Notes: generated by a model not told the origin, from the letters alone. DNA of 64,000 bases from an uncultured virus (IMG/VR IMGVR_UViG_3300012005_000005) (IMGVR_UViG_3300012005_000005); one strand, 5' to 3'. Shown: positions 5,313 through 55,120, counted from the first letter of the stretch. Numbers and translations: made by a program.

Positions 5313-7452
5313 TTAATTCCTTTACCCTACTTTGAAAGTCTTTAATAGTTTGATTAACACCTTCTTCTGAAGTTAGATTTACTAATTTATCTAAATTTAT
5401 TTCTGGCGCAACACTTCCTATTTCAAGTCCTAACTGAGCAATTCTTGCCTTATTATCATCTTTTTCAGATAAATCCATTCCAAGTTGCTCTTTGTAATAT
5501 TCAAAAGCTTTAAAATTATCCTGTTCTTTAGGATCTGTAGATTTAAAATCATAAGGATTTTCAAATACTCTATCTACTTTCTTTACTATGTCTCTTATCT
5601 TGTAAGCTTTGTCTATTAAAGCATCTACATAATCATTAGAAGTGGCTTTAGTACCATCATTGAAATCCATTTGGAATGTAGACTTAAAATCATCAGGAGA
5701 GAGTTCTTTTAATAATTTAAGTTGTTCTATACGAGACTCAAAACGATTAGCTTTAACACCTGAAGATACTAAATTATATAATTGCTGCTGTTGTAAATTT
5801 TTATATTCAAATAAATCACCTGACTCTAATGCAGACTTCATATCTTTTTGAATAGACACTGTTGTAGCAGCTTCATCATAATGATTTTCTAACGTTCCTG
5901 TGAGAGTGGTACTGTTTAATAAACTAAGAGTGGTATTTGTAATAGCATCTTTACTATTTGGAAGTCCCCTAAGTCTTTCAGCAGCAGTGCGTAATCCATG
6001 TATTGCTATACCAATTAATCCACCCATAAGAACTCCTTCCCTACCCTCACGGGTAAAGAATACTTTTTGTAATCCTGTAGCAGCAGATTTATTTAAATTA
6101 TCTAAATCACTTATTGAACTATCATCAAATTTTCTTTTATAGAAATCTTCAGCAGTTCTTCCAAAGAACATCAATCCTCCCATTTGAGCAGTTTGTGTTC
6201 CTATTGAAGTAACTAATCCTGTACTTGGCAAAACTTTAGATGCAAGTCCTTTAATTCCTTTTGCAGGATTTACTATAGCTTCATATATATCTCTTTGTCC
6301 TTCTTTTAATCCAATATTAACCCCATTATCTAAAGTAGCCATTACACCTCTTTTAGCAGCTTGGAAAGGTTTTAATAAACTTGGAAATTGAATAGCATCT
6401 GTTACTGTTAACAATGCCCCTGTCGCAAGCATTTGTGCGTTAGACCCATCTCTTGCGTAGTCTTCAATTTTTTGATTATCAAGTCCTATTGCATCATATC
6501 CGTGTTTATCATAATAATCTTGCTGAAGTTCTGTTCTAAGCATTTTATGTGTGCTGTTAGACATCATAGCAGCTTGACTCCATGCTGCGGTTTGTAGTGC
6601 TAAAGCATATTTTGTCCCGTCAGAAATTTTAGCTATTGTATAAGCTCTATTTAACGCTTTAGCTGTGTTATCACCTGCATTTAATGCTTCATTAAACGCC
6701 TCAAAAGCTTCTTTTCCTCCTGTAAACATTTTTCCTAACTTTGTTCCATACTCTCCAATTTGAGCAGCAATTAAAGGAGCATCTCCTGCACCGACTGTAA
6801 TAGCTCCTACAGCAGCATCCTGTAATACAGTTGCCAGTATTGCTCCTCCTACAAATGCTACATTCTGCATTACTGACCCCCAGCCATTTCCATAAAAAGG
6901 AATATAGTTTGCTATAGGATGGTTATTTGCAAAAGTATTTTGGAATTGCGGCATAGCTTTATCTAAGCTTGCCAATAAATCAGATGTTGTATTATTTACA
7001 GGATTATCTTCTAATTTAGAAAAGTCTCCTGAAATTACAGCGTTTACAGCGTTAGGAATAGTAGCAATAGTTTGAGCAAATCCTGCTATTACGTTAGCTC
7101 CTATTTTTACTGCATCTTTTCCCATTGTTTTAAACCATCCCTCTCTATCTCCATATTGAGTTTCTGTATTAACATTGTATGGGTTAAATCCATATTGAGG
7201 GTCTGCATAACGCTCTGTATCAGATAGTTTAGTATTTACAGGAGTGTTATATTGTTCGGATTTCATCCAGGGGTTCTGTGCTTTAACTAAAGCATCAGAA
7301 TTATTCATTATATTAAATATATTAGGCACAACAGGAGCAGAAGCTGCTACTTCTTCTTGAATAGGAGCAATAGAAGGACTCTGAGTATTTATTACTCCTG
7401 TATCTTGTAGTTCTTGATTGTAATTATATGGATTATTTTGAATATCTGGCAT
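5281..7452 (-). CDS. Large cargo/ejection protein, N-terminal part
   Basis: 723 aa with Ala/Gly-rich hydrophobic segments; position after other cargo genes as in crAss-like phages. Confidence 0.7.
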   Translation of the reverse strand: MPDIQNNPYNYNQELQDTGVINTQSPSIAPIQEEVAASAPVVPNIFNIMNNSDALVKAQNPWMKSEQYNTPVNTKLSDTERYADPQYGFNPYNVNTETQYGDREGWFKTMGKDAVKIGANVIAGFAQTIATIPNAVNAVISGDFSKLEDNPVNNTTSDLLASLDKAMPQFQNTFANNHPIANYIPFYGNGWGSVMQNVAFVGGAILATVLQDAAVGAITVGAGDAPLIAAQIGEYGTKLGKMFTGGKEAFEAFNEALNAGDNTAKALNRAYTIAKISDGTKYALALQTAAWSQAAMMSNSTHKMLRTELQQDYYDKHGYDAIGLDNQKIEDYARDGSNAQMLATGALLTVTDAIQFPSLLKPFQAAKRGVMATLDNGVNIGLKEGQRDIYEAIVNPAKGIKGLASKVLPSTGLVTSIGTQTAQMGGLMFFGRTAEDFYKRKFDDSSISDLDNLNKSAATGLQKVFFTREGREGVLMGGLIGIAIHGLRTAAERLRGLPNSKDAITNTTLSLLNSTTLTGTLENHYDEAATTVSIQKDMKSALESGDLFEYKNLQQQQLYNLVSSGVKANRFESRIEQLKLLKELSPDDFKSTFQMDFNDGTKATSNDYVDALIDKAYKIRDIVKKVDRVFENPYDFKSTDPKEQDNFKAFEYYKEQLGMDLSEKDDNKARIAQLGLEIGSVAPEINLDKLVNLTSEEGVNQTIKDFQSRVKELNKDQGIRYSI

Positions 7453-44767: not shown

Positions 44768-45102
44768 TTATTATCTATCTTAATTAGGAGTGCCACTATA
44801 CTGTCTAAATTAACATTTAGATTATCATTAACTACATATTCATTTATTGCTACTTTTTTAATAAGTCCTACACTTTTTAGTTTGCTCATAGTGTTTTTTA
44901 CTGAATCTACACTTTGTAATATTTTACTATTAAGTATTAAATCTTTTGTAGTTTGTGTAATCTTATACACCATAAAATAAGAAAGTACAGTAATGTCTGT
45001 ATCAGATAGTTTAATAGAAGACAATAAGCAATAAACTGAAATTAAAGACTTTGCTTGTTCTATCTTACTATTTGTTTTTTTATTAATTTTTATTAGTTGC
45101 AT
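44764..45102 (-). CDS. Winged-HTH-like protein
   Basis: SVKNTMSKLKSVGLIKK. Confidence 0.55.
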   Translation of the reverse strand: MQLIKINKKTNSKIEQAKSLISVYCLLSSIKLSDTDITVLSYFMVYKITQTTKDLILNSKILQSVDSVKNTMSKLKSVGLIKKVAINEYVVNDNLNVNLDSIVALLIKIDNK

Positions 45103-45515
45103 TATATTCCTAATAGTTTCATTATTTGTCTAAATTCATTTATAGAAGGGCAGTATCCTCTAAAATATTGATTAGGTAATAAAGGTCTTGTACCTTTATC
45201 TATAGATAAAACATTCCCACCTGATGTATACCAACAATGCCAGTACTTATCTTTGGTAAATGATAATATTTCAGGATTGCTGCACTTTGCTTGTTTCCAC
45301 CCTTCTTCTTCTATTTGTTCTTTTGTTAGGTATTGAGTTCTGATTTCAGCATCATTATCCTTTTTATTATATTTACAGAAGTTTTCTAAATCATATAAAT
45401 TTTCTATTATTTCTTTATCCCAAATACCTCTTACAGGATCATTTTCTATTTCATATTCATACCCTACTCTTATGTCTTCTATTTCGGGGGTGAAGTATTT
45501 TTTATCTTTTTCCAT
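45102..45515 (-). CDS. Hypothetical phage protein
   Basis: YFTPEIEDIRVGYEYE...LTKEQIEEEGW; start moved to MEKD, downstream of the promoter. Confidence 0.7.
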   Translation of the reverse strand: MEKDKKYFTPEIEDIRVGYEYEIENDPVRGIWDKEIIENLYDLENFCKYNKKDNDAEIRTQYLTKEQIEEEGWKQAKCSNPEILSFTKDKYWHCWYTSGGNVLSIDKGTRPLLPNQYFRGYCPSINEFRQIMKLLGI

Positions 45516-45536
45516 AACTATTTGGTTTATAAAGAG

Positions 45537-45568
45537 CAAATATAATCAATTTTTATGACTTTACCAAA
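45537..45568 (-). promoter_or_regulatory. Bacteroidota sigma-A promoter
   Basis: TTTG-N20-TATATTTG. Confidence 0.75.
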
Positions 45569-45600
45569 TTTATTTTTAATCTTTGTTGATTATTTTAATT

Positions 45601-45651
45601 AAAAAAAGCCATCAGCCGATAGGGGATACCCCTGTCCTATGCTGACAGCTT
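45601..45651 (-). terminator. Long hairpin plus U run
   Basis: AGCTGTCAGC...GCTGATGGCT followed by a T run. Confidence 0.65.
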
Positions 45652-45656
45652 AAATT

Positions 45657-45687
45657 AAAAAGTCCCAAGATGGAAATCTTAGGACTT
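45657..45687 (-). terminator. Terminator of attenuator 3
   Basis: AAGTCCTAAGA-TTTCCA-TCTTGGGACTT then TTT. Confidence 0.75.
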
Positions 45688-45725
45688 ATATATTTTCAAT
45701 ACCAAGTTTATTTTTTATGAGTCTT

Positions 45726-45830
45726 TTAAGCCCAATCTGTATCTCTCGTATTAACATAACCCTTCTTGTCGTATGTAAAACACGGCTGTGTAGTTTGTTG
45801 ATGCCAAAATCGAGATACTAAATTTTTCAT
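45726..45830 (-). CDS. Leader peptide 3 (34 aa, MKNLVSRFWHQQTTQPCFTYDKKGYVNTRDTDWA)
   Basis: ATG 4 nt after TAGTTTTG; followed by a terminator; block of R(CGA)/F/W/H/Q/T/P/C codons. Confidence 0.7.
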   Translation of the reverse strand: MKNLVSRFWHQQTTQPCFTYDKKGYVNTRDTDWA

Positions 45831-45834
45831 AAAG

Positions 45835-45866
45835 CAAAACTAAGTAATTTTCTTGAAACTACCAAA
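45835..45866 (-). promoter_or_regulatory. Bacteroidota sigma-A promoter
   Basis: TTTG-N20-TAGTTTTG. Confidence 0.75.
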
Positions 45867-45883
45867 ACTATTTTAAAAAATAA

Positions 45884-46501
45884 CTAAAAATAATTAAAAA
45901 TCCAGGAATTTTCCTCTATTTCTACTAATTCAATACTTAAATCTTTAATTATTGTCTCTTTTTCACACTCATATACTTCTAAAGGGAGTTCTACTTTTTC
46001 TTTAAAAGGTTTTTCATATTTTTCATAAGAAAATATAAATCCCTTAGTAGTAAATTGCCTTTTAGCTACACAATTTATAATGCCAGTATATCTAATTTTT
46101 AATTCCTTAGAAGCTTCTTTAGCACTTATAAATTCTTTTATAAACTCTCCAAATAAATCATATTGATAAACTTTTTTGGGTTCTACAGGAACATAAGTTT
46201 TCCATTTTTTTCTTACTTCATCCCCTTTTAAAATATTTAAAAGTTGAAAACCCTTATCTAAATAAAGATTTATATAATATTTTTCTTTGCTTAGAAGAAT
46301 TTGTTTATTTAAAAATAGTAATTCTTCTAAAATTTCAAATTTATGATTTATTACACCATATTTTTTAAAAGAATTTAATAGTTTATGTTGTTGCTTACAG
46401 TTTAAAGTTTTATAATGTGACCATCTTCTTTCTATATTTAAAGATTCTCCTATGTAAATTTTATTAGTAGGAGAAGTTATTTTGTATATTCCTGATGTCA
46501 T
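45884..46501 (-). CDS. GIY-YIG homing endonuclease with NUMOD1
   Basis: SGIYKITSP..IYIGES and VYQYDLFGEFIKEF; start moved to MTSG. Confidence 0.85.
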   Translation of the reverse strand: MTSGIYKITSPTNKIYIGESLNIERRWSHYKTLNCKQQHKLLNSFKKYGVINHKFEILEELLFLNKQILLSKEKYYINLYLDKGFQLLNILKGDEVRKKWKTYVPVEPKKVYQYDLFGEFIKEFISAKEASKELKIRYTGIINCVAKRQFTTKGFIFSYEKYEKPFKEKVELPLEVYECEKETIIKDLSIELVEIEENSWIFNYF

Positions 46502-46507
46502 TGCATA

Positions 46508-46539
46508 CAAAATTATAAAAACTTTTTGATATTACCAAA
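46508..46539 (-). promoter_or_regulatory. Bacteroidota sigma-A promoter
   Basis: TTTG-N20-TAATTTTG. Confidence 0.7.
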
Positions 46540-46552
46540 TTTATTTTTAAAA

Positions 46553-46626
46553 GTGGGATAGAGGAGTCACCATCTCCATGCAGTTCCGTTTTACAGACGG
46601 TCTGACTTGCGCTGAGCATTATCCCA
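46553..46626 (-). tRNA. tRNA-Tyr(GTA), atypical/degenerate
   Basis: Acceptor TGGGATA/TATCCCA; anticodon arm CCGT-CTGTAAA-ACGG; non-canonical D and T loops. Confidence 0.55.
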
Positions 46627-46703
46627 ATATACATATCCAATCAGTATTAGTTCCATTAAACTCTACTAACCAAAGAATATTATTTAAGTTAATTATAAAC
46701 ATG

Positions 46704-46792
46704 CGGAAAACAGTGTACTCGAAACACATACCTCACAGGGTACATACGCCTTAGCAGGGCGTTGCTATTGTCCTAATATAGCTTTATTTTCC
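46704..46792 (-). tRNA. tRNA-Ser(GCT)
   Basis: ACGCC-CTGCTAA-GGCGT, long variable arm, TTCGA loop. Confidence 0.85.
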
Positions 46793-46797
46793 TTTTG

Positions 46798-46883
46798 CAG
46801 TAGGTGGAGGATTCCAACCCCCGTCGGTGTTACCCGCCTTCAGTTTTCAGGACTGCGCCATTAGCAAACTCTGGCAACCTACT
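46798..46883 (-). tRNA. tRNA-Ser(TGA)
   Basis: Acceptor AGTAGGT/ACCTACT; CAGT-CCTGAAA-ACTG; long variable arm. Confidence 0.75.
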
Positions 46884-46888
46884 ATTTG

Positions 46889-46962
46889 TACCGACAGTCC
46901 GATTTGAACGGACAAACTACACTTTCTAAGAATGTAAGGCGTACCAATTACCTCATGTCGGC
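46889..46962 (-). tRNA. tRNA-Leu(TAG)
   Basis: TACATT-CTTAGAA-AGTGTA; GTCCG-TTCAAAT-CGGAC. Confidence 0.85.
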
Positions 46963-46967
46963 GTTTG

Positions 46968-47042
46968 TGTTCCTACTGAGATTCGAACTCAGCCTTGTAA
47001 GATTTTTAAGACCTTTGCGTCCACCTACTGCGCCATAGGAAC
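46968..47042 (-). tRNA. tRNA-Leu(TAA)
   Basis: GTTCCTA/TAGGAAC; AAGGT-CTTAAAA-ATCTT; CTGAG-TTCGAAT-CTCAG. Confidence 0.88.
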
Positions 47043-47047
47043 GTTTG

Positions 47048-47119
47048 TACCCTTAGTAGGTCACGAGCCTACACTGATTACCTTTTGAGGGTAACGCCTC
47101 TGCATTGGGCTATAAGGGC
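47048..47119 (-). tRNA. tRNA-Leu(CAA)
   Basis: GCCCTTA/TAAGGGT; TTACC-CTCAAAA-GGTAA. Confidence 0.8.
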
Positions 47120-47121
47120 AT

Positions 47122-47152
47122 AAAAAAACCTTGTCTCAATTAAGCAACAAGG
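47122..47152 (-). terminator. Terminator of attenuator 1
   Basis: CCTTGT...ACAAGG plus T7, 2 nt upstream of tRNA-Leu(CAA). Confidence 0.8.
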
Positions 47153-47180
47153 TGTATATGTGTTTGAATGATTATAGGTA

Positions 47181-47264
47181 TTATCCTAATTCTATATCAT
47201 ACATTCCCCTGTCGCTATTTTGTAGCGATAAACTATAGAGACTATATGATGTAAATTGTTTCAT
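47181..47264 (-). CDS. Leader peptide 1 (27 aa, MKQFTSYSLYSLSLQNSDRGMYDIELG)
   Basis: Between promoter and terminator; 9 consecutive Ser/Tyr/Leu codons. Confidence 0.8.
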   Translation of the reverse strand: MKQFTSYSLYSLSLQNSDRGMYDIELG

Positions 47265-47279
47265 TATTTATTTAAAATG

Positions 47280-47311
47280 CAAATATACGTAAAATTTTTG
47301 ACATTGCCAAA
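47280..47311 (-). promoter_or_regulatory. Bacteroidota sigma-A promoter
   Basis: TTTG-N20-TATATTTG. Confidence 0.8.
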
Positions 47312-47319
47312 TATTTATT

Positions 47320-48333
47320 TTAACAAGTAGTTATAAAGTCTTCCCAAGCTTCTAAAGCTTCTTCATTATACCTTTTTAGAGATTTTTTTTCTTTTCTTAC
47401 TAAGGAGTTTCCATTTTTTAGAGCGTGTAACATTTTTTTTACTACTGCTTCTATGTTTGTAGTGGATGTTTTGCTTTCTTCTGGCAACCACTCTATTGTG
47501 TTTCCTACTATTATAGGAATTCCTTGTGATACAAAATCAGCGGCTACAATATTAAAAGATTCATTAAATGATAATTGCATTCCTAAATCCATATTTGAAA
47601 TAAGTCCTAAAAACTCCTCATGTGGAAGCCAAGAATGCTCAACTAACTCATGCTTAGTATTCTTAAACAAAGCTCTTAAATTCTTAACTACAGATTCTCC
47701 GCCTTGTTCTTGTCTTGTACTATTTACATGAAAGCGTATTAATTTATTTTGGTAATTGCCTAAACTTATAGAGGCAAAAGCTTGAAATAGTTGATTTTTC
47801 ATTGGTCTTAAGGCTCCAAAACAACCTATATCAATTACCTTTTTATTTTTAAACTCTCCCAAAAAATTTCTATCATCACAACCACTATAAATATTTGGAA
47901 GATATGGAAAATTTGTATAAAGTGTAGCCATAAAGGAAGTTTGAGCTTCTTTAGAATTAAAAGCTACTGATACATTAGAAATCTTTTTGTATTCTTTTAT
48001 CCAATCTATTGCTACACCCTCATTAGCTAAAAATGGAACTTCTGAGTGAATCCTTATTACAAATAACAAATCTTTATATAGTTTCTGTAATTCTTGTATT
48101 TTTTTGGGTGTAACCCAAATAGCTTCTATTATACATACATCCGGTCTATATTCATTAAGTTCTTTGTCTATGCTATTTCCATCTATACAGATTTTTAGAT
48201 CAGCTTCTATGTCTAAGTGTTCTTCTAAGCTCTCTTCGGTCATCTTTGCAGAATTAAATAATCCTGATGACAAGCCTTTGAAAGAATAGTTTCCGTAATT
48301 ATTTTGTTTTTTTAAAAGAAAAAGTATTTTCAT
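47320..48333 (-). CDS. Glycosyltransferase (GT-B fold-like)
   Basis: IGCFGALRPMKNQ...MDLGMQLSFNESFNIVAAD. Confidence 0.8.
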   Translation of the reverse strand: MKILFLLKKQNNYGNYSFKGLSSGLFNSAKMTEESLEEHLDIEADLKICIDGNSIDKELNEYRPDVCIIEAIWVTPKKIQELQKLYKDLLFVIRIHSEVPFLANEGVAIDWIKEYKKISNVSVAFNSKEAQTSFMATLYTNFPYLPNIYSGCDDRNFLGEFKNKKVIDIGCFGALRPMKNQLFQAFASISLGNYQNKLIRFHVNSTRQEQGGESVVKNLRALFKNTKHELVEHSWLPHEEFLGLISNMDLGMQLSFNESFNIVAADFVSQGIPIIVGNTIEWLPEESKTSTTNIEAVVKKMLHALKNGNSLVRKEKKSLKRYNEEALEAWEDFITTC

Positions 48334-48560
48334 TATACTGCTGGGGCTGGGTTTATTGTTACATCAATTCTATCTGAAGCATCTGTTAGTGTGCTATTTA
48401 GTGAAGCTATTGCTCCTGCGGTCATTGTATTTCCACTTGGAGTTATTGCTGATTCATTATCTAATATAGTACTTATTAACACTAACAAATTAGATAATTG
48501 CGCAATATCATTTTGTTGATCTACAGTGAATGCTACAGGAGGAATTACATTTATTGGCAT
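48333..48560 (-). CDS. Hypothetical protein
   Basis: 75 aa, stop overlaps the next start. Confidence 0.55.
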   Translation of the reverse strand: MPINVIPPVAFTVDQQNDIAQLSNLLVLISTILDNESAITPSGNTMTAGAIASLNSTLTDASDRIDVTINPAPAV

Positions 48561-48570
48561 TATTTACATT

Positions 48571-48732
48571 TTAAAAACGAAAATTGGTAAACTCTTTTAA
48601 TAACCATAAAAGACCTATAATTATTATTAGTGCTGAAAATAATTTTCTTTTTGGCTGGGTTAGTGTTATTAAATCAAGTAACAGAAAAGCTATTACATAA
48701 AATATTAAAACTAAGATTACTGCTGTTAACAT
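48571..48732 (-). CDS. Small two-TM membrane protein (53 aa, possible holin)
   Basis: MLTAVILVLIFYVIAFLLLDLITLTQPKRKLFSALIIIIGLLWLLKEFTNFRF; below the track length cutoff. Confidence 0.55.
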   Translation of the reverse strand: MLTAVILVLIFYVIAFLLLDLITLTQPKRKLFSALIIIIGLLWLLKEFTNFRF

Positions 48733-48763
48733 TGTTTATTATTTATTTATTTAAAAAGATTAA

Positions 48764-49228
48764 TTAATGAATAATTTTACCTACTAAAAACTCTATTACC
48801 CCTAATAAAATTAATAATCCTGTTCCATAGGTTGTTATTTGTGTAACCTTCTTCTCAATAAATCTGACTCTCATATCAATATCTTGCAAAGATGCTTCAA
48901 AATTAGCTTTATATAAGGCATCATAAGAATCTGAAACATTTAGTTTTTCCTTCTCTAAACTCTCAATTCTTCTTTCTGTTCCATTTGCAAGATTTTTAAT
49001 ATCTTCCCTTACACCTTCTATTCTTACTTTTAGTTCTACAAGTAGGTCATGGTCATTTCCATTGGTATTGACCAATACTCTACTTGCATCAATAGCGTTA
49101 CTGGCAACTAATTTACTTGCGGATTGTGCGGCATTAGCAATTACTGTTGCTGCCTGTTCTGCTGCCTTATTAATTAGTTTAACTGCATCGGCTGCATTTT
49201 TTATTGCTACTTCTTCATTATCATCCAT
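48764..49228 (-). CDS. Coiled-coil protein with C-terminal TM helix
   Basis: Ala-rich helix, DHDLLVEL motif, C-terminal hydrophobic segment. Confidence 0.65.
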   Translation of the reverse strand: MDDNEEVAIKNAADAVKLINKAAEQAATVIANAAQSASKLVASNAIDASRVLVNTNGNDHDLLVELKVRIEGVREDIKNLANGTERRIESLEKEKLNVSDSYDALYKANFEASLQDIDMRVRFIEKKVTQITTYGTGLLILLGVIEFLVGKIIH

Positions 49229-49236
49229 AAGTTATA

Positions 49237-49268
49237 CAAATATACGTAAAATAATTGGAATTACCAAA
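49237..49268 (-). promoter_or_regulatory. Bacteroidota sigma-A promoter
   Basis: TTTG-N20-TATATTTG. Confidence 0.75.
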
Positions 49269-49323
49269 TCCCATTATTCTTAGTCAGTCATAAATATAAA
49301 ATATGTAGTTTTAGTAGTATAAA

Positions 49324-49397
49324 TGGTGGACAGATGTGGGAGTCGAACCCAAACAATCTCCTTGCAAAGGAGTTGACCTGCCGTTGGCATCACGCCC
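49324..49397 (-). tRNA. tRNA-Ala(TGC)
   Basis: CTCC-TTTGCAA-GGAG, G3:U70 pair, encoded CCA; bulged acceptor stem. Confidence 0.75.
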
Positions 49398-49460
49398 ATA
49401 AAATTCCAAGCTCAATCCATCACGCAAGGATGTGCTTCTATACTGTTGGCTTGGACTTAG

Positions 49461-49534
49461 TTGTCGAAGTAGGATTTGAACCTACGGCCTCTTTCTTATC
49501 AGGAAATTGCGCTACCAAGCTGCGCCATTCGACA
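49461..49534 (-). tRNA. tRNA-Ile(GAT)
   Basis: TGTCGAA/TTCGACA; TTTC-CTGATAA-GAAA. Confidence 0.88.
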
Positions 49535-49539
49535 ATATG

Positions 49540-49611
49540 TTGATGCAGATGGAATCGAACCAACAATCACGGAGATATAAGCTCCGCACTCTACCATTGA
49601 ATTATGCATCA
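49540..49611 (-). tRNA. tRNA-Ile(TAT)
   Basis: TGATGCA/TGCATCA; CGGAG-CTTATAT-CTCCG. Confidence 0.85.
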
Positions 49612-49763
49612 ATATAATGGAAATTAGGAAACGTATTATTTTCTTTTTTATCCTTCGAGATGGGAAGCGCATTTCCACTAAGGTGCTATTTTGAAAGTTC
49701 AATCCTTAATAAGAACTTCCTTTTATCTAATAAGGCTTAAATATAGTGAAAAATAGCAAAACC

Positions 49764-49839
49764 TGGCAGAACACACGGGAGTTGAACCCGTTCCGTGCAC
49801 CTTGACAGGGTGACATCTTATCCGTTTGACCTGTGCTCT
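49764..49839 (-). tRNA. tRNA-Asp(GTC)
   Basis: AGAGCAC/GTGTTCT; CACC-CTGTCAA-GGTG; encoded CCA. Confidence 0.85.
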
Positions 49840-50861
49840 ATTAATTCTCTAAGTATTTCTACTCTTTGTTTATTTGTTTCTATTATATTATAATGTCTTT
49901 TTCCATATTCATAATTCATTTCTCCATAATCTTCTACTGCATTTGGGTTATTTATAAAAAATTTAAAAGCTTTATACCAATCCTGACCTTTGTCACAAAA
50001 AACTATACCTTTATGGTCTTTATCTGCTGTAAATGGTAAAACATTGCTGCAAATAAAGGGTTTTTTTGTAGAGGATGCCTCTAAAAACTTTAGATTTGAC
50101 TTACAACTGTTAAAAAAAGTGTCTTCTAATGGTGCAACTGTTATATCTCCATAATTATAATGCTCCATATACTTATCTAAAGTAAGAGTGTCTCTTCTAA
50201 TATATGAATTAGACTTTTTACATATAGATTCCATACTATACCAAGCATTTTGTTTACTATTTGTAGGGTTGTTATATCCACAAAGAGTAAAATTAGCCTT
50301 TTTTTTGAAGTCTGTATCTGTTCCAAGCCTTTGAAACAAACCACTAATGGATTTTAAGTCATTATAATGTGTACTTCCTGATACATATAAGAATCTTAAT
50401 TTATCTGAATCAGTTTTTCTATTCTCTACATCAAAGGAAAGTGCATTTGGTATAACAAAAATATTTTTATTATATACTTTATAAACATCCCTTAGTAACT
50501 CATTGGTTACAAATACTAAATCTGCCTGTTTGCATGCTTCTATTAAACGTTCTCCCAACTTTACCCTATTCCAATCTGTGTAGTATAAGTGATTATAAGG
50601 AAGTATATAGTAGTCATCTATATCTAAAACTATTTTAAAACCATATTTCTTCCTTAAAATGTTCATTACTTCCCACTCTTCAAACATCATACGTTTTAGA
50701 AAAACTATATCACAATCAAATATGGTCTCGTCCTTATAACAATCTTTGTGTCTTACAATTTTAATACTATCATTTTTTTCTAAATCAAAATAGTTGGTGG
50801 GTAAAAGAAGTCGGTGATAATCACATCCATCATTTTCGCTGTATAGGATAGTTATTCTCAT
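49818..50861 (-). CDS. Glycosyltransferase (GT-B, family 4-like)
   Basis: GCDYHRLLLP, LDIDD, VIPNA, APLEDTFFNSCKSNLKFLE. Confidence 0.85.
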   Translation of the reverse strand: MRITILYSENDGCDYHRLLLPTNYFDLEKNDSIKIVRHKDCYKDETIFDCDIVFLKRMMFEEWEVMNILRKKYGFKIVLDIDDYYILPYNHLYYTDWNRVKLGERLIEACKQADLVFVTNELLRDVYKVYNKNIFVIPNALSFDVENRKTDSDKLRFLYVSGSTHYNDLKSISGLFQRLGTDTDFKKKANFTLCGYNNPTNSKQNAWYSMESICKKSNSYIRRDTLTLDKYMEHYNYGDITVAPLEDTFFNSCKSNLKFLEASSTKKPFICSNVLPFTADKDHKGIVFCDKGQDWYKAFKFFINNPNAVEDYGEMNYEYGKRHYNIIETNKQRVEILRELIEHRSNG

Positions 50862-52078
50862 TCTACTACTTCAAAATTTGGTATTGGAATTACAAACTTT
50901 CCTTTATATCCAGCAGCTTTACATTTAGCAATTATTTCCTCTTTAAAATTCCACGATAGTATGACTAAATAATCAGGAGGATTTCTCATAAAATCATGAA
51001 TTGAAATAATTGGAATAAAAGTACCTGGTGAATATTTTCCTATTTTCTCAGGTGTTTCATCCACTATATATTTTATCCTTCCCACTGTAATGCCTGCACT
51101 GTTTAGTAGTGTATTTCCCTTTGCACTTGCTGCAAATGCTGCTACTGTTCCTCTCAAATTTAGGGCACTTATACCATCAGAAAATTCATTTATAGTTTGT
51201 TTCACTTCTTTGGCAAACTTTTTATAAGGTTCAATCCTATAGTAAGCCTCTTCTATCTTCAAAAAATCATAAACAGACTTATCAGGAAGTCCATTGCCAA
51301 TGGTTACTCTTACTGTTCCCCCATGAATATTTTGCTTTTCAACTTGTAGTATATTTAATCCAAATTTTGAACAAAGGATACCAATTGGATTTATAGAAAA
51401 ATAACTAAGATGTTCAAAATAGACAGTATCGAATTCTTTGTTTTCTATAAAATCAATTAGATATGGGAATTCAAGTATTAATTTACCTTCCGGTTTCAAC
51501 ATTATTTTTGCACCCTCTATAAAATCTTTCACATTGTCTACATGTGCGAATACATTAGTAGCAGTTATTAAATCTGCTTTACCATAACCGCTTCTTAATA
51601 AACGATTTGCAGTTTCTACACTCCAAAATTCAGTTAAAATAGGTACACCCACTGCTTCAGAAATTGCTGCTAAATTTTCTGCTGGGTCTATATTTAAAAC
51701 TTTTTCTCCTATAACTTTTTTAAACTGTTCAAGTAATGCTCCATCATTCCCTGCTATATCAATATGAAAAGAGTTTTCATTTAAACCCATTTTTTCTTTA
51801 AGATCAATAGCCATTTTCCTACAATGTTCAACATAAGTATTACTTATAGAAGAACGATAAACATAGTTTGAAAACAAAGTATGAGGATCTATTACAACAG
51901 ACAATTGACTCAGTCCGCAATCTGCACATAGTAAAACTTTTAATGGATAGGTTTCAGAATGAATGGGGTCTGATGTAGAGTTTGCTAAGTTATTACTTAA
52001 AGGCATATTACCTAAATCGAGGTAAGGTACTAACTTAGTACTGTTACATATTCTGCAATTTGTTTGATTTTTGTTCAT
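50858..52078 (-). CDS. SAM-dependent NDP-sugar C-methyltransferase-like protein
   Basis: CRIC...LGNMPLSN...CADCGLSQL, DIAGNDG, TNVFAHV, YFEHLSYF, AASAKGNTLL. Confidence 0.88.
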   Translation of the reverse strand: MNKNQTNCRICNSTKLVPYLDLGNMPLSNNLANSTSDPIHSETYPLKVLLCADCGLSQLSVVIDPHTLFSNYVYRSSISNTYVEHCRKMAIDLKEKMGLNENSFHIDIAGNDGALLEQFKKVIGEKVLNIDPAENLAAISEAVGVPILTEFWSVETANRLLRSGYGKADLITATNVFAHVDNVKDFIEGAKIMLKPEGKLILEFPYLIDFIENKEFDTVYFEHLSYFSINPIGILCSKFGLNILQVEKQNIHGGTVRVTIGNGLPDKSVYDFLKIEEAYYRIEPYKKFAKEVKQTINEFSDGISALNLRGTVAAFAASAKGNTLLNSAGITVGRIKYIVDETPEKIGKYSPGTFIPIISIHDFMRNPPDYLVILSWNFKEEIIAKCKAAGYKGKFVIPIPNFEVVE

Positions 52079-52095
52079 TTTTTATTTACTTTGTG

Positions 52096-53409
52096 TTAAT
52101 TATGTATTAATAAACATCCTGATACCTTTATCCACTTACTTGCTCCATATTTTTTAATAATATCATCAAAATAAGTCCAATCTGAGCTGTGACTTTTTAT
52201 ATCTCTCCATCCTACGCTGCATGCTGCACTCTTCTTTATCATTACTCCTGCACAATCTATATACCCTAACTGTAATTTACAATCTATTACTCCATATTTA
52301 TAATTATCCCACTTTAGATTGTCTGCACTTACTTGTCCATAGTTTAAAACAGTGGTTTGTTGAGGAGCTAAATAACTATGAACCATTTTAGAACAGTATG
52401 TAGCTACAGCATTTGGATTTTCTTTAAATCCAGTTAATAGGGTTTCTATATATGTTGGAACATGGTGATTATCTGCATTTGTAATTACTACATAGTCAGT
52501 ATTGGGTGATATTATATCCATATTTTTCAGTCCCCACTGTCTATAAAAATGTCCCCAATATCCTTTTCTTTCTGCAAATTCAATATAAGTTATTCTCTCA
52601 TCTCCTATTGTGGAAATAATTTTCTTCAGTCCTGTCTCATTTTTTCCATCATGAATTAGCAGCAACTTCCAATTTTTGTGAGTTTGATTTATTAAAGATG
52701 ATACTATTTCTGGATAAGTATTATAAACAGGACAAATAAAAGTAACTTTTTCTGAAAGATCTTTCTTAAAAACTGAATTAAATTCTTCTGTTCTACCTAA
52801 ATAACTTCTTATTTCTGTGTCCCATAAAGGACTGTTTGCTAATATAGGTTCTACTATTATTGCCTCCATTCCAAGTTTTTGAATCTGCAATAAGAAGTTA
52901 TTTTCTTCTCCGTGTTCAAACGAATAGCATTCTAATTTAGTATAAATTCTTTCCACAGGAAAAAAAAGCTTTTTTGAAGCACTTTTTGAAATAAGAAAAC
53001 CTGTTGTTCTTATATGTGGTCTAATTTGATTAGATATTTCTGTGCAAATTACTGCATTTTCATTTTCCTGAGACTTTTGAAGAAATGTTTTAAGAAAGTC
53101 TTTAGTCATAGGAATAACATCATCAGTTATCCACAGTAATTTATCCCAATTATTATCAAAACCTGAAAGTCTTTCTTTGCATACATCTTGAAAAACACCT
53201 ATATCATAACCAATATTTTCTCTTTGGATATATTTTATATTCTCTGCATCACACACATTTTTAAATTCCCTAACACTTACTTCTCTATCTATATTATGTA
53301 TAACAATTAGTTCTGCGCCTTCTTGATTACTTTGTTTCCAACAATCAATCCAACGTTTTAAATTATTTAATCTGTTGTAAATTATAATTACTACCTTGAT
53401 TTTTTGCAT
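52096..53409 (-). CDS. Two-domain glycosyltransferase (GT2-like)
   Basis: RENIGYDIG...PHIRTTGF N-domain; VTFICPVYN...QTHKNWKLLLIHDG...TNADN C-domain. Confidence 0.8.
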   Translation of the reverse strand: MQKIKVVIIIYNRLNNLKRWIDCWKQSNQEGAELIVIHNIDREVSVREFKNVCDAENIKYIQRENIGYDIGVFQDVCKERLSGFDNNWDKLLWITDDVIPMTKDFLKTFLQKSQENENAVICTEISNQIRPHIRTTGFLISKSASKKLFFPVERIYTKLECYSFEHGEENNFLLQIQKLGMEAIIVEPILANSPLWDTEIRSYLGRTEEFNSVFKKDLSEKVTFICPVYNTYPEIVSSLINQTHKNWKLLLIHDGKNETGLKKIISTIGDERITYIEFAERKGYWGHFYRQWGLKNMDIISPNTDYVVITNADNHHVPTYIETLLTGFKENPNAVATYCSKMVHSYLAPQQTTVLNYGQVSADNLKWDNYKYGVIDCKLQLGYIDCAGVMIKKSAACSVGWRDIKSHSSDWTYFDDIIKKYGASKWIKVSGCLLIHN

Positions 53410-53417
53410 ATATAGTG

Positions 53418-53449
53418 CAAAGATAATATAAAAAAATCAAATTGCCAAA
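53418..53449 (-). promoter_or_regulatory. Bacteroidota sigma-A promoter
   Basis: TTTG-N20-TATCTTTG. Confidence 0.75.
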
Positions 53450-53467
53450 TTTATTTTGTATTCATTG

Positions 53468-53538
53468 AGCGAATGGTGTGAATCGAACACACATCAAAAC
53501 TTTGGAAGAGTCTTGTTTTACCATTAAACTACACTCGC
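53468..53538 (-). tRNA. tRNA-Gly(TCC)
   Basis: GCGAGTG/CATTCGC; AGACT-CTTCCAA-AGTTT. Confidence 0.88.
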
Positions 53539-53541
53539 ATG

Positions 53542-53615
53542 TTTCGGGTGCAAGATTCGAACTTGCGGTATCCTACTTATGAGGAAGGTGAGATAGACCT
53601 CTTCTCTAACCCGAA
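53542..53615 (-). tRNA. tRNA-Met(CAT) (Ile2 not excluded)
   Basis: TTCGGGT/ACCCGAA; loop CTCATAA; GCAAG-TTCGAAT-CTTGC. Confidence 0.8.
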
Positions 53616-53764
53616 ATGTGGGACGTTGTTTTTTTATAGAACTTCGCCCAAAAACTATATGTTTTGACATTTTGCTGCGATTGATGCAATACGCTATTAT
53701 AATTCACGTACCCGTCTTCATTCAAACGTCTATGTGTCTGTCAACAACACATTACGTACAGTCG

Positions 53765-53917
53765 CTGTAGAAATAGGGATCGAACCTATAAGTGGAGATT
53801 AAAGTAAATACAAAATAAGATGTACATTTTACTGGTCAACCGATTATATCTACTCCGTTTCTTTTATCCACGCCACCGAGACAAGGTGGTGCGTCTGCCA
53901 AATTCCGCCACTCTACA
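53765..53917 (-). ncRNA. tRNA-like RNA (GTC loop) with 83-nt structured variable arm
   Basis: TGTAGAG/TTCTACA acceptor, Leu-like D arm, CCACC-TTGTCTC-GGTGG, ATAGG-TTCGATC-CCTAT. Confidence 0.7.
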
Positions 53918-53977
53918 ATTTATTATTTTCTACATTTTCCTACATTAAGGCNNNNNNNNNNGATGTTGTATAGTCCA

Positions 53978-54061
53978 TTAGTATCTTCTTAAAAGTGCTA
54001 AAATACAAAGAGCAATTCCACCTATTATTACTGAACCTATAGCTTCTAAAAATGTTTCCAT
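53978..54061 (-). CDS. Putative 27-aa membrane peptide (METFLEAIGSVIIGGIALCILALLRRY)
   Basis: ATG 4 nt after the TAACTTTG promoter element. Confidence 0.4.
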   Translation of the reverse strand: METFLEAIGSVIIGGIALCILALLRRY

Positions 54062-54065
54062 AATG

Positions 54066-54097
54066 CAAAGTTATATAATTATTTTGAACTTTCCAAA
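54066..54097 (-). promoter_or_regulatory. Bacteroidota sigma-A promoter
   Basis: TTTG-N20-TAACTTTG. Confidence 0.7.
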
Positions 54098-54107
54098 TTT
54101 ATTTTTG

Positions 54108-54184
54108 CGTTCAAGGAAGGATTCGAACCCGTCTGTCTTCGCTTTAAAAGAGCGTAGCTTATACCTGACTTAAGTTTCGAGGGT
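54108..54184 (-). pseudogene. Chimeric tRNA-Lys(TTT)
   Basis: CGCT-CTTTTAA-AGCG anticodon arm and GTTCGAATCC are present, but 5' ACCCTCG does not pair with 3' CTTGAAC. Confidence 0.6.
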
Positions 54185-54186
54185 AT

Positions 54187-54218
54187 AAAAAAACCCAAAA
54201 GTTTTTGTGCTCTTGGGT
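54187..54218 (-). terminator. Terminator of attenuator 2
   Basis: ACCCAAGA...TTTTGGGT plus T run, just upstream of the tRNA. Confidence 0.8.
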
Positions 54219-54246
54219 CTCATTATGAATCTATGTTAATTTCTTT

Positions 54247-54351
54247 TTATATTCCTGTTCCAACATAAGGATTCTGTTTACCCACAGAGCGAGATTTCTC
54301 TCCGCCATCGGCATTCATTCTATTATCCACTATGTTTACGTTTAAATACAT
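54247..54351 (-). CDS. Leader peptide 2 (34 aa, MYLNVNIVDNRMNADGGEKSRSVGKQNPYVGTGI)
   Basis: Between promoter and terminator; 16 consecutive purine-start codons. Confidence 0.75.
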   Translation of the reverse strand: MYLNVNIVDNRMNADGGEKSRSVGKQNPYVGTGI

Positions 54352-54375
54352 TGAAATTTTTATAAGTTTAAAGTG

Positions 54376-54406
54376 CAAATATAGGAAAACTTTTTTATAT
54401 TGCAAA
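54376..54406 (-). promoter_or_regulatory. Bacteroidota sigma-A promoter
   Basis: TTTG-N19-TATATTTG. Confidence 0.75.
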
Positions 54407-54449
54407 ATTTATTTTTAAAAATAATTGATTTTAATTATTATATACTTCT

Positions 54450-54713
54450 TTAATCATTTTGATGTGTATTTAATAATTTTTCAAAATCTTTTGGGGAAAG
54501 ATCAATCAAACATGTATCACCTGATTTAAGTTGTATCTGTGTTACATGTAAAACAGGGTCTCCATCAGCATCTCTGTGTGTTGGTCTATATGATTCTAAC
54601 TGAGAAGGTAAAAACTTAAACCAACTGTCTTCATATTCTTCTTTACCCATTACCTCTGCCCTACTTACACTATAAATTCTTATGTGTACTCTTATAAATC
54701 TTTCTGTAAACAT
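54450..54713 (-). CDS. Hypothetical protein
   Basis: Start moved to MFTERF, coupled by TAATG to the upstream gene. Confidence 0.6.
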   Translation of the reverse strand: MFTERFIRVHIRIYSVSRAEVMGKEEYEDSWFKFLPSQLESYRPTHRDADGDPVLHVTQIQLKSGDTCLIDLSPKDFEKLLNTHQND

Positions 54714-55120
54714 TATTTTATTTTTATTGATGTTGGTTTGTCTACTATAAATATAGCTTCTCCTGAATGTTTTTCCCACAGAGACAGCCAATCATTCCAT
54801 GCTATTTTTACAGGAAGTAGTCCACCATACTCTGCTACTAATATTGTATGTTCTTCATCTAATGGGTAGAAGTCATGTATTTCATTTGTATTTATTCCAT
54901 ATGGTTTATAATAGAATTCTAAATTCTTAGTGTTAAACATCTTCTCAAACCTATCATCCATGCCAAACTCTGAATCCTCATCATCCTCATCATTATCAAG
55001 GCCAAGTTTTCTTCTTGTTTTTCTATCTAAACCTCTTTCATCTTCTACATCGTCTCTATTTTCAGAGAGATAATCTTTTTTTGGTTTTGCATATTTAACT
55101 AATACTATTATTCTACTCAT
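54713..55120 (-). CDS. Hypothetical protein
   Basis: 135 aa with an acidic patch. Confidence 0.65.
   Translation of the reverse strand: MSRIIVLVKYAKPKKDYLSENRDDVEDERGLDRKTRRKLGLDNDEDDEDSEFGMDDRFEKMFNTKNLEFYYKPYGINTNEIHDFYPLDEEHTILVAEYGGLLPVKIAWNDWLSLWEKHSGEAIFIVDKPTSIKIK

Follow-up and report, generated by a model that had tools for sequence, protein, structure and literature searches.

Codon-matched leader ORFs as candidate attenuators of tRNA arrays in an uncultured phage and its relatives

Three leader units in the tRNA region

We analysed a stretch of DNA of 64,000 nucleotides (nt) from an uncultured virus (IMG/VR IMGVR_UViG_3300012005_000005), referred to below as the window, in which three short open reading frames (ORFs) with the layout of leader-peptide attenuators lie in the region of the tRNA genes. 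A first-pass annotation had described three units sharing a Bacteroidota-type promoter, an ORF of 27-34 codons and an intrinsic terminator. All three were present as described on the minus strand, which carries every gene discussed here (leaders, tRNAs and neighbours). Their parts, together with the array behind leader 1, are:

47280..47311, minus strand: promoter of leader 1
47181..47264, minus strand: leader 1 ORF, 27 codons; codons 6-14 are Ser, Tyr and Leu only
47122..47153, minus strand: intrinsic terminator of leader 1, with its T-run ending 2 nt short of the first tRNA
46553..47119, minus strand: array 1, with tRNA-Leu (CAA, TAA, TAG), tRNA-Ser (TGA, GCT) and a low-scoring tRNA-Tyr (GTA; 46553..46625), found with ARAGORN and Rfam, the Tyr at a relaxed threshold
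54376..54406, minus strand: promoter of leader 2, Bacteroidota-type (TTTG ... TAnnTTTG)
54247..54351, minus strand: leader 2 ORF, 34 codons; codons 4-19 are Asn, Val, Ile, Asp, Arg (AGA), Met, Ala, Gly, Glu and Lys only
54187..54218, minus strand: intrinsic terminator of leader 2, with a 9-bp stem, an 8-nt loop and T7
45835..45866, minus strand: promoter of leader 3
45726..45830, minus strand: leader 3 ORF, 34 codons; codons 7-19 are Arg (CGA), Phe, Trp, His, Gln, Thr, Pro and Cys only
45655..45687, minus strand: intrinsic terminator of leader 3, with 12 pairs and a loop of 4

The sequence TTTG-N17-23-TAnnTTTG was found upstream of each leader. The window has 18 such sites against 5.86 expected, a number reached by 0 of 100 shuffles, and neighbouring protein genes are also preceded by the same 32-nt promoter frame. 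A scan for sigma-70 promoters stayed at chance level (44 sites; 48.1 expected), as expected for a Bacteroidota host. The stop codons of the three leaders were followed after 27-39 nt by the hairpin and T-run. A standard terminator scan of the window gave 3 sites (3.7 expected) and, among the leader terminators, detected only that of leader 3; the terminators of leaders 1 and 2 were located with a custom script.

Together the three blocks name all 20 amino acids. Arg is the only one shared, and it is split by codon family between leaders 2 and 3 as first annotated. Leader 1 had 8 of 19 codons in the set of its own tRNAs, with 2.8 expected (p = 0.004, Tyr not counted). By itself the window gives only weak support, and the pattern exceeds chance by a wide margin only when the relatives are added.

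Leader content follows array content in relatives

Loci of relatives were gathered by terminase alignment. By this gene the nearest named kin are Leptolyngbya phage Lbo-JY46 (51% identity), the gut phage csAssE-Sib (31%) and two phages of Cellulophaga, phi4:1 and phi17:2 (30%). The curated set comprised 30 units from 13 phages with terminase identities of 29-60%, including the cultured phage phi4:1. Every locus with tRNA arrays upstream of the terminase had the same unit immediately ahead of the leading tRNA of a block. It consists of a short ATG ORF and, after a spacer of 22-43 nt, a hairpin (-9.6 to -21.2 kcal/mol) with a T-run that ends 0-9 nt before the tRNA, so that no room is left for a promoter between terminator and tRNA. 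This order of a terminator before genes without an intervening promoter also holds for leaders 1 and 2 of the window; leader 3 has no gene behind it. About 70 of 80 terminase-related viral loci had no tRNA array upstream of the terminase gene, and the design is thus confined to tRNA-bearing members.

The first-pass annotation had proposed a search of relatives for an ORF and terminator before tRNA arrays with matched codons. Such units were found, and leader and array co-varied across the 13 phages. In Lbo-JY46, which has three units, and in loci L005, L011 and L083, a Thr/Arg/Gln/His/Phe/Trp/Pro block stands ahead of exactly those seven tRNA types, and a Ser/Leu/Tyr block stands ahead of tRNA-Leu, tRNA-Ser and tRNA-Tyr. 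In L003 (terminase 44%), a 19-codon leader has a block of His, Pro and Gln only, followed by a terminator and then by tRNA-Pro, tRNA-Gln and tRNA-His. In L029 and L035 the gene order is altered and the leaders are altered accordingly, with 13 of 13 and 9 of 9 types matched, respectively. L035 has no Met, Lys, Ile or Val tRNAs; its whole leader lacks Ile and Val, and Lys occurs once beyond codon 2, immediately downstream of the matching block. In L101 the Pro-Trp block includes tRNAs for Asp and Asn, and the leader of that block has codons for both (8/8 types); a fourth unit in L103 serves Cys, Asn, Thr and Gly (4/4 types). Cys codons were found in the unit that holds the Cys tRNA, and the two move together. 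Among the more distant loci, L114 (terminase 29%) has a His/Gln/Phe/Pro/Arg block, and a leader of phi4:1 (NC_021788.1 87065-87133, with a terminator after it) matches an array of Pro, Glu, Gln, His, Leu, Leu and Arg (6/6 types).

The match was then expressed in numbers. An automatic pipeline with the codon range fixed at 2-20, a longest-ORF rule and spurious units kept gave 34 non-redundant units, in which 306 of 638 codons fell in the set of the own array (160 expected) and 233 codons were readable by the own anticodons (115.8 expected). With their own arrays, 29 curated units had a precision of 0.70 and a recall of 0.95; with the other arrays of the phage concerned, the values were 0.12 and 0.44. 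A permutation test that reassigned arrays to leaders within each phage (11 phages) gave no score as high as the observed one in 20000 trials. The match was specific to the reading frame: the in-set fraction was 0.70 in frame 0 (that of the ATG) vs 0.19-0.30 in the five other frames, and frame 0 was best in 27 of the 29 units. The Jaccard score of five units with large sets was reached by 0 of 20000 random peptides. For small Ser/Leu/Tyr sets, the Jaccard-window statistic was uninformative, with up to 17717 of 20000 random peptides reaching it; the run, precision and permutation measures were therefore used.

The split of Arg by isoacceptor extends to the relatives. CGN codons went with ACG-only arrays in 10 cases and AGR codons with TCT-only arrays in 5, with one mismatch, so that codon family and Arg anticodon agree in 15 of the 16 cases that are informative. 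One further case had both, and for four Arg codons no Arg tRNA was found.

Two observations on the named relatives touch on these units. Leaders of Lbo-JY46 (locus L004; for example, 1780-1830, 5350-5390 and 6075-6118) lie, as judged by eye, behind Bacteroidota-like TTTG ... TAnnTTTG promoters; the recorded host is a cyanobacterium, and the record may deserve a second look given these promoters. In phi4:1, the annotated start of gp075 (L133 12990-13109) lies inside a promoter and its frame, which has no in-frame ATG, is leader-like and rich in amino acids of the next tRNA block, and gp076 (L133 15118-15219) overlaps a Ser TGA tRNA (ARAGORN, relaxed threshold).

A leader segment is complementary to the terminator

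The first-pass annotation had also placed in each unit a segment complementary to the 5' arm of the terminator. Such a segment was present about 46-75 nt from the ATG. The terminators vary between phages and the segment varies along with them, although for leader 3 of the window the signal is weak. The putative antiterminator strands of leaders 1 and 2 are:

47199..47216, minus strand: antiterminator strand of leader 1; duplex with the terminator 5' arm -14.5 kcal/mol, own arm first of 18, 0 of 500 shuffles; it is the minimum free energy (MFE) structure when nt 1-40 are masked
54279..54290, minus strand: antiterminator strand of leader 2; duplex with the terminator 5' arm -11.3 kcal/mol, shuffle p = 0.014; it pairs in a transcript cut before the 3' arm

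The duplex between a leader and its own 5' arm had an energy of -13.5 kcal/mol vs -8.9 kcal/mol for cross pairs. Among the 30 arms, the own arm ranked first for 9 units and within the top 3 for 21, and p against shuffled leaders was 0.05 or less in 26 of 30 units (16 of 18 in a set of 18 units). A column-by-column count of compensatory pairs was dropped: when nine Ser/Leu/Tyr-type units were aligned with MAFFT, their antiterminator strands did not fall in register, and own vs cross duplex energies were used instead.

Folding was performed with and without a segment occluded by the ribosome, as had been suggested. Three constrained states agreed: the terminator was in the MFE structure in 29 of 30 units with no ribosome; the 5' arm paired upstream in 29 of 30 when nt 1-40 were masked and the 3' arm was not yet made; and a ribosome placed at the stop codon again gave the terminator in 29 of 30. 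The agreement did not extend to the full-length equilibrium with a stalled ribosome, at which the antiterminator was the MFE structure in only 12 of 30 units. In a standard fold leader 1 had a z of -3.4, and leaders 2 and 3 cut before the 3' arm showed the antiterminator helix. These findings establish the anatomy of the units, the match between leader and array, its specificity for frame and codon family, and the co-variation of antiterminator and terminator.

The system in this phage

Behind leaders 2 and 3 the region is less regular. Its features are:

54107..54175, minus strand: low-scoring tRNA-Lys (TTT), called at a relaxed ARAGORN threshold and by synteny, with no Rfam match at E<=1
53467..53615, minus strand: tRNA-Met (CAT) and tRNA-Gly (TCC), downstream of an extra promoter (54066..54097)
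49328..49848, minus strand: tRNA-Asp (GTC), tRNA-Ile (TAT), tRNA-Ile (GAT) and tRNA-Ala (TGC), the distal part of array 2, past inserted glycosyltransferase and methyltransferase genes
45601..45650, minus strand: second long hairpin with T-run, directly past the leader 3 terminator

Leader 1 is intact and is predicted to gate six tRNAs; it is the only leader here that, on this prediction, still clearly gates an array. The order behind leader 2 is Lys; a promoter at 54097; Met and Gly; a promoter at 53449; the inserted genes; and Asp, Ile, Ile and Ala. The promoter at 54097 drives a 27-codon hydrophobic ORF (53978-54061, minus strand), and that at 53449 is followed by genes for a family-2 glycosyltransferase, a C-methyltransferase and a further glycosyltransferase-like protein (PHROG match). 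Because the two promoters intervene and only the Lys-like tRNA lies before them, gating of the Met, Gly, Asp, Ile, Ile and Ala tRNAs by leader 2 is doubtful, and leader 2 is predicted to gate directly one weak Lys tRNA. The homologous array in L011 is almost contiguous; array 2 was therefore read as split by inserted cassettes. The phage has kept tRNAs for six of the ten amino acids named in the leader 2 block.

The low-scoring Lys and Tyr calls rest on relaxed ARAGORN thresholds plus synteny. Relatives have good Tyr and Lys tRNAs at these positions, and Lys is likewise first in array 2 in L004, L011, L101 and L103. The claim that every tRNA behind leaders 1 and 2 belongs to the set of its leader held for 13 of 13 typed tRNAs; it does not cover one untyped tRNA-like element (53764..53917, minus strand), which the ARAGORN intron model types as Thr, outside the set. 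This element has a good acceptor stem and T arm, a class II (Leu-like) D arm and an insertion of about 70-85 nt past the anticodon stem; Rfam did not report it and its anticodon is uncertain. The anticodon stem is poor in the intron model, and the Thr typing was therefore dropped and the element left untyped. The three tRNAs with Leu anticodons in array 1 (46888-47119) are just 73-76 nt long and lack a long variable arm, which is usual for bacterial tRNA-Leu; the neighbouring Ser tRNAs keep it (87-90 nt).

Leader 3 still has its promoter, ORF and terminator. Contrary to the proposal that all three leaders gate tRNAs, it gates nothing: its terminator is followed directly by the second terminator and then by the next promoter. 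At the place of the second hairpin, relatives have a Pro/Thr/Phe/Gln/His/Arg/Trp array of seven tRNAs and then an end terminator. We read leader 3 as a remnant of a deleted array, and the presumed attenuator system is partly decayed in this phage.

Several other genes lie among these units. A GIY-YIG/NUMOD homing endonuclease gene (45884-46510, minus strand) lies between array 1 and the orphan leader 3, and in Lbo-JY46 a homing endonuclease gene (L004 3562-4389) lies inside a tRNA array; it may be through such genes that arrays are rearranged and lost. A sugar-modification cassette with its own promoter occupies 49818-53409 (minus strand) inside array 2, its C-methyltransferase having a zinc-binding N-terminus, and a further glycosyltransferase-like gene is at 47320-48333. 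The tRNA region also has a recurrent small ORF, hydrophobic and single-helix (the ORF at 53978-54061 in the window, L003 185-313, L005 5540-5653). Its stop codon overlaps the start of a leader ORF in L003 and L005, and leader translation may be coupled to it.

The phage and its kin

The window is AT-rich (guanine-cytosine content 28-33%). It encodes a large terminase, a portal, a major head protein and a virion protein of 1938 residues; the PHROG families of these genes are known in crAss-like phages and Cellulophaga podophages. The same phage is represented by two IMG/VR contigs at 99.98% identity, and near-identical DNA is present in four DNA soil-metagenome runs of one study. A megablast of the region against the phage collection gave no match, and no relatives were obtained via the AAA ATPase gene. 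Two runs of ten N are present (3030-3039 and 53952-53961). The latter lies directly past the hydrophobic ORF in array 2, breaks a short frame overlapping the stop codon of that ORF and hides part of the region behind it. Among the listed terminase homologues, about one in ten, of about 1030 residues, has intein/LAGLIDADG or Hint domains (P0035-P0042, P0087, P0091, P0094); these are intein-bearing terminases within the phage clade. The closest homologues in the list (P0001-P0003) share 69-92% terminase identity with the window.

Discussion

We consider it likely, on the comparative sequence evidence, that these units are ribosome-mediated (leader-peptide) transcription attenuators controlling tRNA genes, with up to 13 amino acids named in one leader, and that the phage probably makes a tRNA set only when the matching codons are read slowly. 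As a statement about leaders matched to the tRNAs downstream, the original proposal is strongly backed by the comparison; in the window it falls short for leader 3, which has nothing to gate, and for most of the tRNAs behind leader 2. Leader translation, stalling, a kinetic choice between folds and a biological trigger are what we infer, as follows. A transcript would start from the host-type promoter and its first 19-36 codons would be translated. Codons ~4-16 spell the amino acids, and largely the codon families, of the tRNAs just downstream. When a charged tRNA is scarce, its codon would be read slowly and the ribosome would stall inside the block, leaving the segment about 46-75 nt from the ATG free. 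The free segment would capture the emerging 5' arm of the terminator, and RNA polymerase would continue into the tRNA array. With fast decoding, the ribosome would cover or pass the segment, the terminator would form and no tRNAs would be made. If the leader were not translated, the segment would be held by the block itself and the terminator would again form. The net effect would be a matched tRNA set supplied on demand and self-limiting.

Several observations weigh against this attenuator reading. Leader 2 matches its remaining tRNAs at chance (8 of 19 codons in the set, 6.6 expected, p = 0.33) and names Asn, Val, Arg and Glu without a matching tRNA being found, and the antiterminator of leader 3 is the weakest of all (shuffle p = 0.12, rank 18 of 30). 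In the relatives, some arrays hold tRNAs missing from the block (for example, Glu in L029 and L035), one phi4:1 unit is without an in-frame ATG, and no leader ORF was found before the Met, Gln, Arg, Cys array of csAssE-Sib, despite a promoter-like site and a hairpin with T-run (L134 7028-7172, minus strand). The curated units were chosen by eye out of the pipeline output, and the longest-ORF rule takes another ORF in L052. In the folding, the upstream pairing in 29 of 30 units is controlled by the shuffles of the duplex test and not by separate ones, and the terminator remains the MFE structure in 18 of 30 units when the full-length leader with a stalled ribosome is taken at equilibrium. The choice between the folds must then be kinetic, as in classical attenuators. 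The first-pass claim of mutually exclusive blocks that partition the 20 amino acids is exact as to codon content, but the partition by itself is not significant: with block edges free, 18 of 200 random peptide triples reach it with at most one amino acid shared. It was discarded as stand-alone evidence.

The last result and the chance-level match of leader 2 are what would be expected if the whole pattern had arisen by chance through block edges set post hoc. For the family this is refuted by all the comparative tests, including the pipeline with its fixed codon range and longest-ORF rule, and its likelihood is negligible; chance could hold for the partition claim alone. The equilibrium folds would also suit an ORF that senses decoding through its matched codons but acts by another route, such as Rho-dependent polarity, transcript stability or processing of the tRNA precursor. 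We regard this as unlikely. Such a route does not require a hairpin with T-run at 22-43 nt past every stop codon and 0-9 nt before the first tRNA, nor a segment that is complementary to the 5' arm and co-varies with it.

If the open frame were incidental, the RNA could work independently of translation as a T-box-like tRNA sensor or a processing signal, and the phi4:1 unit without an in-frame ATG, together with leaders that begin only a few nt from the -7 promoter box, would fit. However, the match is confined to the ATG frame, and each of the 30 curated units has an ATG, with an in-frame stop whose distance to the terminator varies only within limits. An Rfam cmscan of 45000-55000 at E<=1 returned tRNAs and two weak, chance-level plastid-UTR (untranslated region) matches opposite the tRNA genes, with no leader family (His, Trp, Thr, Leu or other), no T-box and no further cis-regulatory family; we hold this explanation to be highly unlikely. 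The units might instead be ordinary small phage genes with their own terminators, the tRNAs arising from constitutive leakage and the match in composition from shared ancestry. Annotation of phi4:1 gp075 as a hypothetical protein and N-terminal residues common to homologous leaders are consistent with this. But in rearranged phages Cys, Asp/Asn and Met/Lys/Ile/Val move or vanish with their tRNAs, the permutations within phages never reach the observed score, and the Arg codon family tracks the Arg anticodon, which leaves such an origin scarcely probable.

If the units are attenuators, a broader reading can be offered tentatively, and we think it rather doubtful. Jointly, the 2-4 attenuators of a phage may give a multiplexed report on how well the infected cell can decode all its codons, with the arrays serving as inducible counter-measures, not constitutive supplements. 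Any amino acid whose charged tRNA falls would switch on the block with the replacement, and an orphan leader would be the fossil of a lost block. Triggers could include decay of host RNA, codon-usage mismatch and, speculatively, cleavage of host tRNA by anticodon nucleases.

If the attenuator reading is true, a broad clade of large Bacteroidota phages regulates its tRNA supply by demand, which bears on why phages carry tRNAs and when they use them. It would give an annotation rule, that where a short ORF and terminator precede phage tRNAs, the ORF should name the amino acids of that tRNA block, and would explain small "hypothetical proteins" annotated in such regions, as with phi4:1 gp075. The reading is testable in the cultured pair Cellulophaga baltica and phi4:1, and the units offer natural parts for sensors of decoding capacity.

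The first-pass annotation knew of no description of attenuation controlling tRNA genes. In agreement with this, the literature searched, with most subscription journals outside it, gave no account of attenuators before tRNA genes; there, leader-peptide attenuation was found described only for amino-acid biosynthesis, transport and one synthetase. To our knowledge, no leaders are more multivalent than these.

The enterobacterial ilvGMEDA (Ile/Leu/Val) and thr (Thr/Ile) operons have multivalent leader-peptide attenuators with termination as the default. The phage units resemble them in having a short, putatively translated leader whose regulatory codons stand for several amino acids. In both, an intrinsic terminator follows and its 5' arm can pair instead in an antiterminator that excludes it; termination is the predicted default in the phage units too. 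Unlike them, the phage units would control tRNAs and not biosynthetic enzymes, name up to 13 types mostly 1-3 times each and not in runs, and are phage-borne with Bacteroidota-type promoters. In T-box riboswitches, as is proposed here, a choice between terminator and antiterminator reports the state of a specific tRNA; however, the T-box binds uncharged tRNA directly without translation, whereas the signal in the phage units is a frame-specific ORF. For unregulated phage tRNA clusters, the proposed role is to compensate for codon-usage mismatch, for decay of host tRNAs or for anticodon nucleases. They share with the present arrays a large tRNA complement near the late genes of a big phage, but here each block has its own predicted demand sensor. 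In Escherichia coli pheST, a leader peptide with Phe codons precedes the phenylalanyl-tRNA synthetase genes, and leader-peptide attenuation of a component of the translation apparatus likewise answers the supply of charged tRNA. The product there is a synthetase for one amino acid, whereas the product of the phage units would be the sensed tRNAs themselves, which would close a direct feedback loop.

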